Shown here piece by piece: positions 20,720 to 46,950 of a stretch of DNA of 64,000 nucleotides. A program made the translations under genes and the position numbers. The DNA lies in the NCBI GenBank assembly GCA_964016885.1, contig OZ024740.1, forward strand, positions 47,430,001-47,494,000, given 5' to 3'. Origin of the DNA: Eledone cirrhosa (Eukaryota). The notes beneath the pieces are model-generated. The model did no database searches and was not told where the DNA came from. It worked only from the letters and a program-made list of their open reading frames with translations. The stretch's first letter is position 1, and each line of letters begins with the position of its first letter.

Positions 20720-20755
20720 GTATTAAAGATGCCACACTGGTATGCACGTGCCTTG
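20720..20755 (-). CDS. micro-exon E13 (36 nt): (P)RHVHTSVASLI
   Basis: ttttcttaattttag acceptor, gtaagt donor, phase 1-1, paralog of E7/E12. Confidence 0.75.
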
Positions 20756-21949
20756 CTAAAATTAAGAAAATAAACATTAATGTAACTTATTTTAATAGTT
20801 GTATCAGTCATTAAACATCAAATATTTAATGTGAAGTACTTAATATTTATCTAATTCTTTATATTTTTCAACATTTATTTATAATTATATGGCTATCATT
20901 ATTTATCTTACATTTTTTAATTTTTGTAATTAAAAATTATAATTAAAAATTGTAATTAAAAATTATCGTCAATTTCTATACGATGATGAGTTATTTATTT
21001 TCTTCATTTTCTTGTATAGAATGTTGATTAGATAAAGAATTGAAAATTAAACAAAATATTATTTCGGATTTAAAATTTTTATATGGAAACTGTAAGAATG
21101 GGATTAAATATAAATTATTTAAACTAACATTAATGTCTAAAATTGACTGCAGATAATGTTTGGCTGTTTGTGTATTTTATTTTGAATCAAATTGGCAATG
21201 AATCATTTATTTATTATTACTCAATTTAAACGCCTGCAGAGAGCTAACAACCTATGGCAGACTCGGGAGAAGTATCGAATACTCCTTACAGTTGGTAATC
21301 AAAAAGAGCTAGTGTGACAAGTAATAAAAAAGAAATGAAAAAAGGAAAAGATGAAAAATAAAAATATATAAAATCTAAAATGAAATTTAAAAAACGAAAA
21401 GGAGGAAAATGAAATAACAAAAATAACATTCCAAATATTGAAGGCCAGTGGGGTGAAGATTATAATTGTTTGATTGAATATGAGTGGAAAGACATACTTC
21501 TGACCACAAAAAAATATCCGCATTTTTGCAGTGGGGTAAATAAAATAAAATAAAATAAAATAAAATAAAAACGTTTTATTAATTTTCATTTTGCCATCAA
21601 TGAAAAGAGTGCTGTATGTATTTAACAAAGAATATATATTGTTTTGAGATTTTCAATATCTAATTCAATTTCATAAGTTTAATCCAGTATAGACTATGAG
21701 TATTTCTTTTCTATGTTGTAAATCAAAAGTAGTTTCCAATAGGACTATTAATTAACTAACGTGGTAATTACGAAAGACAGTTAATTATATTACTTGTATA
21801 CATGTAAACCGTTATAATAAACAATGAAATTCTTTAAATGTAACATCTAGAAGACAGTGTCTTCTTTAAATATTTCTTATTGAAACTGCTGGAATATGTA
21901 ACACGGGTAATTATATATATATATATATATATATATATATATATATATA

Positions 21950-24920
21950 AACAATGAGTCAATTGATTTGTTGATTATTCAACAAAGTTGATTTACAACA
22001 GATTAGAACCTCTCAACGGGTTTTTCCGGATTATCATTAATATCAATAATATTAATAAATGGAAAATATCTTTATAAAACCATATTTATTTTATTATACG
22101 TATTTCAAGGGTACTAATATTTTAGTACGCTTTCGTCAGATAAAATACAATGATTGGTGTAAAGATTGTGACATATCTTCATGTGAACTTCATGTTATAA
22201 ATTCATTGGAACGGTACAAATGAAGTAATAGATTGGTTTGTAGACATTAAATCTAAAAATAATACAGAACTTATACAAATGGATATAGCTAATCACTATT
22301 CTTCAATAACTCCTAATTTACTTAATAAACCACTAATATACGCATCAAAGCATACTGACTTATCTACTGAAGAAATAAACATTATATTAACTGCACGAAA
22401 CTCTCTTATTGAATTTAACAATGATCTCTGGACTAGAGCTGATAGACGGGACAACTTCGATATTACCATGGGCTCCTCTGACTCAGCTCAGGTTACAGAT
22501 TTGGTTGGAATATTCATTCTTAATGCCTTACATAGGAAATTGCCGGAAATTACCGGAGGTTTATATTGTGATGATGCGTTATTTATAGTTGATAAACATA
22601 ACAATAGTGAACTTAGCAGAAAAAAAGAAAATTATTATAGACTTTTTTAATAATTATGGCCTTAAATTAGAAATAGAAAATGATAATAAAATTGTTAACT
22701 TCTTAGATGTTACACTAAACCTTAACTCAGGCCTATATTACCCGTTCCATAAGATTAATGAAAACCTAAACTACGTTAGCTTCTACTCTAACCACCCTAG
22801 AAATGTTAAAAAGGCTATAGTTAATAGTGTCCAGCAAAGAATATCTAGACTCTCAGCTAATAAAAATATATTTGATAACAAAGCAGAATATTACAATGTC
22901 GCTCTACACGGAGTTGGATACAATAATAAAATTAACTACGTAGATAAGAATACTCTACACCAACCTCCTAAAGTTTATTATAATATTAATAATAATCAAA
23001 TTAACCAAAATAATAAATCAAATAAGACACTGTCTTCTAGATGTTATATTTAAAGACATTTCATTGTTTATTATAACGGTTTACATGTATACAAGTAATA
23101 TAATTAACTGTCTTTCGTAATTACCACGTCAGAACTAGAAATATAATTTGGTATTCTCCTCCAATTTCATTAGGAATTAAGACACCTTTAACACACCAAT
23201 TCTTTAAGGCTTTAGATAAATGTTTTCCTAAGTCTCATAAGTATCACTCTATTTTTAACAGACATACAGTCAAGCTCTCTTACTCTACTATTATGAATAT
23301 ATCCCAGAATGTTGCTAGAATTAATAATAGGAATTTAAAATTAAACTCAACCCAAATAAACTCAAATAGCAATAACAATATAATTAATAACTTTACGTAT
23401 AATAATAATAGTGAATGCATAAATAATAATACCGTATCTCTAAATAACAATATTAGAAAATGTAATTGCAGAAATAACATATCATGCCCTTTACGGAATA
23501 ATTGCCTTGATAGAAGTTTAGTATTCAAATGCACCATAAAAACTAGAGATAGATTATATAATTATATAGGAACTACTTCTTTAAAATTTAAGGACCGTTG
23601 GATAATCATAAACATACTTTCAAACGATCGGACAAAAAATTCTCAACCTCAATTTCACAATTAATTTGGTCTTTAAAAGACAGTAACACTGACTATTCAA
23701 TCTCTTGGCGAAAGATATCGAATGCGGCAGTTTACCAAAATATGGCTCTCTCAAGAATTTGTCATCTCTGTATTGAAGAAATCTTTCATATAATTACCAA
23801 TCCTGGTAATATTATTAACAAAAAAAAGGAAATATATAATTCTTGTTTGCATCGATTCTCCAGAACATTTCACAATATTTACAATTTATAGAAAATACAA
23901 CACATTGTCTGTGTAAGTTGCCTATGTACAATATATATATTTTTGTTGTCTTTATAAATTCTTAAATTTATACATAGAAATACATATTATTATCAAAATT
24001 TACTATATGGTGCTCTGAAAACTTATAGAAATTTTTACTTATATTTATAATATATATTATAATTAATTATTAGGTTAAACATTACATAAAACAATATATC
24101 TTTAAATAATATACCTTCCTTAAATTACTAAAGACTAGAGTTTATAATTCACACATACGAGACATCCAAATTTAATATAAATGTTTAAATTTATATAACT
24201 AACTTTATACAATAATAGATTATACATAATATTATACATCTTCACTTTAAAAAATATGATTATTTTTACATTCTTAAGGTATATATAAAAAAGCATATAT
24301 GTTATCGCTTGATATATCTTACGCTCTTTCCTAATTTGATGTCTATATATATATACTTAAATAAGATCTATATTCACGCCTAATCATTTATGTACTAAAT
24401 AAATGTTTTTAATAACCATATACAATAATGTCTTATAATACAATAGATTATATTTATAACTGCAGTCATCATATTAAAATATATGCGTAAAATATAACCA
24501 ATCGTATATCTTTCACATATTATATTGTTGTAATTGCTTTAATAATTTAATAGTTCTCAATTTAATACATTACATTTTAATTCTCACCTAAATATTATAA
24601 ATACTTCCATATTCTTAAAATATATTATAAAATTAAATAAATAAATAACCATAATTATATCATTCTTTCTATACCCATGTAAATATGTTTGGGTGTATAT
24701 ATGCATATTTCTATAAATAATCCTAAATTAACTTTACAATATTTTTTTCAAATTTAATAGCAAATTCTTTTCAAAGATATTTAGATGAATATTTAAAATC
24801 TATCTAGCGATTAAACTTAACGGTCCTTTTCAGTTTTAACGTTATCCTCATTGGCATATTTCCACTGAGTTTTGACAAATTAAATTCACTATCTTCAATG
24901 AAATTATAACATGAAGTTCA
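21950..24920 (+). mobile_element. Penelope-like element, copy 2
   Basis: Same ORF fragments as 17373-18740 (22279-23891). Confidence 0.9.
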
Positions 24921-25344
24921 TATGGGGGGGGGGGGGGGGCGGATTGCGATCCTGTGTCCGCCTAACGAAGCCAGTGTCTGGTACTGATTTCTCCAGGTTG
25001 CCGCTGGAGAAAGTATCGCAGCAAGTCGCATCTCAATTTAGGAACTTGCCGCTTTGGAGCAGAAAAGGTTTTGAGGCCGTTTGGTATTTGCCGTTTTTTT
25101 CGGTCTAATCTTATTATTATAGTTGTAGTGGCACCCCTGCTTGGTACAAACCACATGTGACAATATCGTTTAGATTGACCTGCTGAGGGGAACAGCCAGC
25201 GTTAAGACGGTATGTCAACGGGTGGAATCTGGAAATGTCAACCGTTGATCCGTAACGGCTTTTGTGTTGCTCATAGACCTGACTACAAATCCTATTTATA
25301 TATATATAGATATAACTATAGATTTTACATAATGAAATACTTAC

Positions 25345-46200: not shown

Positions 46201-46270
46201 CCCTTGAAATACGCATAATAAATTAAATATGGTTTTATAAAGATATTTTCCATTTATTAATATTATTGAT
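43230..46270 (+). mobile_element. Penelope-like element, copy 3 (extra ~70-bp deletion in RT)
   Basis: Same motifs as copy 1. gcatactgactt|gagctgat deletion at ~43642. Confidence 0.9.
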
Positions 46271-46914
46271 ATATATATATAGATTTATTTATTTATTTAT
46301 ACATACATATATATACATGTGTGTGTGTGTGTGTGTGTGTGTGTGTGTGTGTGTGTGTGTGTGTGTGTGTGTGTGTGTGTGTGTGTGTGTGTGTGTGTGT
46401 GTGTGTGTGTGTGTGTGTGTGTGTGTGTGTGTGTGTGTGTGTGTGTGTGTGTGTGTGTGTGTGTGTGTGTGTGTGTGTGTGTGTGTGTGTGTGTATGTGT
46501 GTGTGTGTGTGTGTTTGCGATCCTGTGTCCGCCTAACGAAGCCAGTGTCTGGTACTGATTTCTCCAGGTTGCCGCTGGAGAAAGTATCGCAGCAAGTCGC
46601 ATCTCAATTTAGGAACTTGCCGCTTTGGAGCAGAAAAGGTTTTGAGGCCGTTTGGTATTTGCCGTTTCTTCGGTCTAATCTTATTATTATAGTTGTAGTG
46701 GCACCCCTGCTTGGTACAAACCACATGTGACAATATCGTTTAGATTGACCTGCTGAGGGGAACAGCCAGCGTTAAGACGGTATGTCAACGGGTGGAATCT
46801 GGAAATGTCAACCGTTGATCCGTAACGGCTTTTGTGTTGCTCATAGACCTGACTACAAATCCTATTTATATATATATAGATATAACTATAGATTTTAAAT
46901 AATGAAATACTTAC

Positions 46915-46950
46915 GTATTAAAGATGGCGCACCTCCAGGCACGTGCCTTA
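46915..46950 (-). CDS. micro-exon E7 (36 nt): (V)RHVPGGAPSLI
   Basis: ttttcttaattttag acceptor, gtaagt donor, phase 1-1. Confidence 0.78.

Follow-up and report, generated by a model that had tools for sequence, protein, structure and literature searches.

In conotoxin and snake-toxin genes, exons outpace their flanking introns in divergence, and silent sites are raised too. Two other described systems are also close to the locus reported here. Micro-exon genes (MEGs), known from schistosomes and tapeworms, are apparently restricted to platyhelminths (PMC4350168). Their coding regions are made mostly of tiny symmetrical exons (PMC4350168; bioRxiv 10.1101/2020.04.08.031872), with a signal peptide, high amino-acid divergence and protein variants produced by exon skipping (PMC4350168). 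An operational definition asks for at least 7 exons, of which at least half are <70 nt and divisible by three, with a run of at least 4, and such genes are easily overlooked by gene finders and read mappers (bioRxiv 10.1101/2020.04.08.031872). In the genes for small secreted salivary gland proteins (SSSGP) of the Hessian fly, coding sequences of tandem copies are more variable than their introns, which was explained by positive selection together with homogenised non-coding DNA; SSSGP-2 has a similar micro-exon-like build, with ~950 coding nucleotides and 35 introns (PMC2955719). Here we compare with these systems a 64,000-nucleotide stretch of the genome of the octopod Eledone cirrhosa (contig OZ024740.1, positions 47,430,001 to 47,494,000; hereafter the window). 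Three 36-nt micro-exons in this window, E7, E12 and E13, are likely to be exons of one predicted 160-kb micro-exon gene, whose young exon copies have likely been diversified by selection on amino acids, as judged from the genomic sequence.

The sequence was extended by 200 kb on each side of the window, and coordinates outside it are given as the G000:C1 position minus 47,430,000. Between 9 and 131 kb, the minus strand has 62 GTAAGT donors, and 27 of them end a symmetrical phase-1 micro-exon that is free of stops, compared with 0 of 35 on the plus strand of the same interval and 5 of 183 across all control strand-regions. Of the 31 exon-like GTAAGT candidates, whatever their length, 27 are divisible by three and have an open phase-1 frame, and the MEG trait of symmetrical exons in one phase (PMC4350168) is thus present. 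The model takes these 27, minus two 18-nt candidates that lie inside a repeat (at 128372 and 128835), plus three exons with other donors or outside the interval, giving 28 micro-exons and a first and a last exon; three 38-nt candidates and one 68-nt candidate were left out. The modelled micro-exons are 18–51 nt each and 1,044 nt in total, and of the two alternative frames one is open in 7 of them and the other in 12. The predicted gene lies on the minus strand, spans ~160 kb with about 380 codons, and has only its 3′ third in the window; it rests on the splice-site pattern, and its ends were picked by eye. The original prediction had taken divergence as an independent mark of function in the 36-nt segments. 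That they are functional exons is supported, but mainly by the array statistics.

In this model 28 of 30 exons are 18–51 nt, in agreement with the operational definition of MEGs as far as a model, and not an annotated transcript, is concerned. The candidate first exon is hydrophobic and is accompanied by a TATA-like box, and would give the product a putative signal-peptide-like start. In build and fast evolution the predicted gene resembles the MEGs of schistosomes. It is molluscan and lies outside the flatworm lineage, homology with the MEG families is not expected, and any likeness would be one of convergent architecture. Unlike MEGs, it belongs to a free-living mollusc instead of a parasitic flatworm, it is ~160 kb long, and its divergence is among exon copies within one gene. 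An intact paralogous gene was not found in a search with the first-exon region, which gave one 170-nt decayed copy besides two weak matches. Protein variants by exon skipping, which are documented for MEGs, may also arise here. No modelled exon (n = 28) begins with AA, AG or GA, and therefore no skipping combination creates a stop codon at a junction. In the literature on micro-exon genes of cephalopods, molluscs and octopuses, as judged from listings and with most subscription papers outside the scope, no such gene is described, and the listed papers that combine micro-exon genes with molluscs all deal with parasites; annotation tables in cephalopod supplements could already carry it as uncharacterised.

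In the window, the family H micro-exons E13 (20720..20755), E12 (25345..25380) and E7 (46915..46950) are on the minus strand, in phase 1, and have an identical AG acceptor and GTAAGT donor. They sit in duplicated cassettes of roughly 4.5–6 kb. Copy A (16740..21197, intron plus E13) and copy B (21426..27647, intron plus E12) are in tandem with a junction near 21197 and are 98.4% identical, while copy C (42324..48525) contains the intron, E7 and one family E exon. The original prediction had placed all three exons correctly, and its counts by eye were accurate: E7 and E12 differ at 6 of 36 sites, altering four internal codons (G>A, G>S, A>V and P>A) and the split first codon, and at 3 of 320 flanking sites (160 nt per side). 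The six changes are private to E7, and one of them is silent, at the third position of a doubly changed codon. The exon difference is significant against the near flank (Fisher p = 4.8e-5) and against the whole duplicated intron (94/4,739, 2.0%; p = 8.5e-5). The two differences reported between E12 and E13, both amino-acid changing (P>H and A>T), were also confirmed, but as an excess they are not significant (2/36 versus 64/3,960, p = 0.12), and a count of 2 is also reached by 392 of 3,890 intronic windows.

The changes in family H are clustered, with 7 of 8 variable sites inside 12 nt. When changes between E7 and E12 that lie up to 3 nt apart are merged, 3 exon events are left (p = 0.02), and merging those up to 10 nt apart leaves 2 (p = 0.08). 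Comparable clusters at non-exonic sites, which the original prediction itself had said would speak against it, do occur to some extent. Six or more differences are reached by 41 of 4,669 overlapping intronic 36-nt windows, all confined to two regions (copy B, 22662-22727 and 22866-22919). In copy C coordinates the same two clusters lie at 43869-43934 and 44073-44123 and hold 7–8 substitutions per 36 nt; nearly all of these changes are private to copy C, and no exon signal was called there. Given this clustering, the equal density of two intronic clusters and the lack of significance for E12 versus E13, the H observation taken alone is weak evidence. Moreover, family H had been chosen because it looked extreme.

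Families V, E and P were not so chosen and give an independent test. A tandem array at 101.5–111.7 kb consists of four 2.2-kb units, each with one P-type and one V-type exon. Variable columns number 17 of 36 in family V versus 14 of 337 in its flank (p = 1e-11) and 8 of 33 in family E versus 13 of 155 (p = 0.015), while family P shows no excess (3/38 versus 35/590, p = 0.41). In a test that preserves clustering, a window of exon length was slid along the whole alignments; its windows overlap, so the fractions are rough. The exon count was reached by 0 of 1,993 intronic windows in V, 6 of 3,853 in H, 0 of 103 in E and 674 of 1,987 in P. The V introns reach at most 9, compared with 16 in the exon (16 of 36 columns, versus 5.5% in introns). 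Exon copies of H, V and E are 3–8 times more different from each other than their introns are, and those of P are not. Thus the exon-focused excess proposed for H recurs in two of three further families, strongly in V and moderately in E, but is absent in P; these alignments support an excess of divergence specific to exons in three of the four young families. The P exons share units and similar composition with the V exons, yet have no excess, and for this reason a general hypermutability of exons is unlikely.

Amino-acid changes were pooled over the internal codons of the four families, with the frameshifted P copy omitted and the first 11 codons of V used. They amount to 27.8 on 98.2 sites, against 5.9 expected from the GC-adjusted flank rate (p = 2e-10). 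Diversifying selection on amino acids in the young exon copies, as the original prediction had claimed, is likely in view of this exon excess, but the claim has to be softened in three respects, which are the modest pN/pS, the raised silent sites and the homogenised introns. Several points weigh against our reading as a whole. The pN/pS is 1.55 and not significantly >1 (p = 0.2, with only 34 silent sites), and silent changes are also raised, to 6.2 on 33.8 sites versus 1.9 expected (p = 0.014). Of the 28 amino-acid changes, 17 come from family V, those of E taken alone fall short of significance (p = 0.09), and P contributes none. In old paralogues, exons diverge about as much as flanks (mostly 0.22–0.53 versus 0.21–0.41), and the distances among V exons, ~0.3, resemble these values. 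In family H, the two intronic clusters lie on the same branch as E7 and equal its density. As for the gene itself, the model is based on a splice-site pattern, the interval of 9–131 kb used for the donor count was drawn after inspection of the data, and exon 2 is 38 kb away from the following candidate, so that the array could be more than one gene.

Some of these points would follow if the exon lineages were old and the introns young, that is, if gene conversion had homogenised the introns in tracts that stopped at exons or were purged over them, without any acceleration of substitution. Selection would then merely preserve an existing diversity of exons. Such homogenisation was proposed alongside selection for the SSSGP genes (PMC2955719), and in the four-unit array the informative sites of the introns are split among three trees that contradict one another (10, 7 and 4 sites). 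Introns do recombine between copies, and homogenisation inflates the contrast between exons and introns. The near flank is also unusually alike, as copy C carries no private change in the 389 nt next to its exon, versus 56 in 3,938 overall (p = 0.004), and both the roughly three-fold rise of silent exon changes and the likeness of V exons to old paralogues, whose flanks are 21–41% diverged, fit old exons. However, a raised shoulder of divergence beside the V exons is not seen (the profile per 40 columns begins 2, 0, 2, 2, 15, 2, 1, 4), intronic differences are mostly private to one unit (93 of 115), and the P exons in the same units as V are as alike as the introns. Moreover, exons would begin to escape conversion only if selection favoured difference. 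Both this explanation and the diversification of young copies need selection for exon difference, and only the latter needs accelerated substitution. We regard old exons as an unlikely account of the whole, while part of the contrast may be due to exons that are older than the introns on either side.

A few multi-nucleotide events or hot spots that happened to fall in exons, with no selection at all, would equally produce tight patches such as that in H, and would account for the dense intronic clusters on E7's branch and the loss of significance on merging events. Most multi-nucleotide mutations are nonsynonymous, and their effect resembles that of selection (bioRxiv 10.1101/165969). Neutral clusters of this kind could explain H alone but hardly V, whose exon count lies far above the intronic maximum. 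The excess is repeated in V and E on several separate branches, and between the frameshifted P copy and its siblings 2–3 of 38 sites differ, which is about the flank rate. A small hairpin in E12 covers the changed sites but is not unusual (z −1.2), and hairpin-driven mutation was dropped; neutral clustering as a general explanation is quite improbable. Two further mutational sources were tried and rejected. CpG transitions make up only 4 of 31 variable columns, and none of the seven derived patches has an outside local donor as template (≤1 mismatch, 464 kb), although the V2 patch is also present in its sister exon. It is less probable again that the segments are not live spliced exons, that a single locus was assembled twice as copies A and B, or that the differences arose as assembly errors. 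Copy A lies directly at a 200-N gap and is nearly identical to B, and several exon copies are visibly dead. Against this, the array is regular in strand, phase and frame, and any doubt about A versus B leaves families V and E untouched. The A–B junction lies inside one contiguous stretch and not across the gap. Two haplotypes are unlikely. In addition, over 20330-21123 a contig of run X2 departs from the window by 16 letters and 1 gap; 17 and 1 are predicted for copy C and 10 and 2 for copy B. This match is deduced from counts and not from displayed letters, and X2 is possibly the sample behind the assembly. Because the count fits copy C, the E7 differences look real, and assembly error is unlikely.

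Selection on the young exon copies therefore remains our preferred reading, and a mechanism can be proposed from it. Cassettes of 2–6 kb comprising an intron and an exon, which can be recognised in the sequence as tandem duplicates, would supply new exon copies; phase 1-1 exons in multiples of three could be added or skipped without breaking the frame, and in some copies a splice site or a base is missing, as in birth and death. The exon excess in H, V and E, and its absence from P, would mark the modules in which selection retained new amino-acid variants. Conversion or unequal crossover would keep the introns alike and exaggerate the contrast. Exon skipping would then yield a pool of variant proteins. 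The last and weakest step concerns the product, which would be a disordered, probably O-glycosylated protein of a gland or mucus, acting at a recognition interface. For the whole of this, namely a secreted protein of this kind with short modules diversified at a recognition interface, we estimate a probability of about 0.55.

The predicted product would be secreted, about 380 residues long, of low complexity and rich in Pro and Thr. The 28 micro-exons encode 18% Pro, 9% Ala and 9% Thr, with 1 Cys in 320 residues, in peptides of only 5–16 residues per exon; the block at 96–118 kb reaches 29% Pro and 14% Thr. The octopod gene is like conotoxin and snake-toxin genes in exon divergence above that of introns and in raised silent sites, but no gene family was found for it. 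Unlike a conotoxin, it has no conserved cysteine framework in its variable region and is not built as a three-exon gene of signal, pro and mature parts. The arms-race role named in the original prediction (such as venom, immunity or gamete recognition) is an inference, and venom is left without support; a reproductive or host–microbe secretion would be the more probable product. The nearest evolutionary parallel is the SSSGP set of the Hessian fly. The SSSGP genes form multigene families with dN/dS >1 and salivary expression (PMC2955719), while the octopod case is one gene and its ratio is not significantly above one. The available part of PMC7656900 contains nothing that identifies the gene.

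A bolder proposal, which we hold only tentatively, is that a MEG-type gene arose independently in octopods, as a giant array with combinatorial splicing that makes a variable secreted recognition protein with an immune, symbiont-facing or reproductive role. Equally tentative is the history that goes with it, in which duplication of cassettes gives rise to exon copies that diverge under positive selection while neutral divergence is no more than a few percent, and then die. Micro-exon genes have been described mostly from parasitic flatworms. A fast-diversifying gene of this type would point to an arms-race interface that is still unknown and to a hidden class of cephalopod genes. The locus holds its own controls, since fast (V, H and E), slow (P) and dead exon copies lie in the same duplicated units, and therefore it offers a compact test between positive selection, intron homogenisation and clustered mutation.

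The other parts of the predicted gene are all on the minus strand. The candidate last coding exon, chosen by eye, is at 9838..9890 and contains an acceptor, 16 full phase-1 codons and a stop; its acceptor is one of several possible, and the exon starts a single-copy candidate 3′ UTR. In run X4, whose kind is not on record and which holds 88 million letters versus ~1,400 million in X1–X3, 0.71 of the words sampled from 9000-9960 are present. The part at 9200-9960 is single-copy, and the words found in X4 give no more than a hint of the candidate 3′ UTR. Four runs were compared with 20330-23900 at 80% likeness, and no spliced joint is among the matches listed, which are filled by repeats. A 200-N assembly gap inside the gene (16540..16739) may hide more exons or copies. 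Three family E micro-exons of 33 nt, all in phase 1, lie at 28619..28651, 35448..35480 and 42369..42401. The second has 2 silent differences from the first, and the third has 6, five of them amino-acid changing (internal codons). A phase-1 micro-exon of 36 nt at 50366..50401 has strong splice sites and no paralogue seen in the window. It is followed by an intron (50402..64000), and the gene continues rightward beyond the window to ~G000:C1:47598550, with 21 further micro-exons and the candidate first exon.

Beyond the window, micro-exons are at 64269-64307, 81967-81993, 96741-96779 and 97746-97784. In the tandem array, P-type micro-exons lie at 102480-102518, 104905-104943 and 109397-109435, with the frameshifted 38-nt copy at 107154-107191, and V-type micro-exons at 103424-103462, 105662-105703, 107910-107954, 110155-110190 and 111107-111142. 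Older relatives are found at 111779-111817 and 116044-116073, and other micro-exons at 117954-117992, 120407-120448, 121696-121737, 124153-124194, 124777-124794, 130153-130191 and 168092-168142. Dead copies lie at 113567-113605 (donor lost), near 113000 (acceptor lost), and at 113985 and 114996 (38 nt). Three 38-nt copies with intact splice sites (L019:3154-3191, L019:9985 to L020:22 and L020:996-1033) would each break the frame if included alone, and are likely skipped, dead or decay-triggering. An 18-nt exon on the minus strand (L021:777-794) reads PEAEA near the N-terminus, and may resemble the X-Ala/X-Pro spacers that are cut by dipeptidyl peptidase in peptide precursors.

The candidate first exon, also chosen by eye, begins with an ATG at 168436, has a phase-1 donor after 168394 and encodes 14 mostly hydrophobic codons that look like a signal peptide; the TATA-like box is at 168545-168553. 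It lies 251 nt upstream of the strong 51-nt phase-1 exon (168092-168142), the first residues of which would supply a small-residue cleavage pattern. The decayed copy of this exon and its donor is 75 kb upstream on the same strand (L052, G000:C1:47673651-47673819), with a one-base insertion and an early stop. Two weak first-exon matches on other contigs were inspected and are not gene copies. For the H, E and V queries, the parts that contain exons match at this locus alone, and the match counts are lower bounds.

About 43–60 kb to the left of the window, two CAP/GLIPR1-like exons lie on the plus strand (L010:366-581 and L009:6420-6538), convergent with the micro-exon gene. The former is 83% identical to a GLIPR1-like protein of Octopus sinensis and 79% to that of Argonauta hians, while the latter was recognised by eye only. 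The neighbour is on the opposite strand and therefore says little about the role of the micro-exon gene. In the intron next to E13, a contig of run X5 (organism B) is ~86% alike over 20330-20656; its first 138 letters lie outside the aligned piece and would reach E13 if colinear. A decayed transposase-like fragment (11750-12450) and a reverse-transcriptase-like retroelement fragment (L021:7650-9500), both on the minus strand, were recognised by eye. In addition, repeat copies at 1241-2630, 32180-32976 and 41034-41379, inside or beside the gene and next to TAA runs, are 96–99% identical and suggest recent activity of the element.

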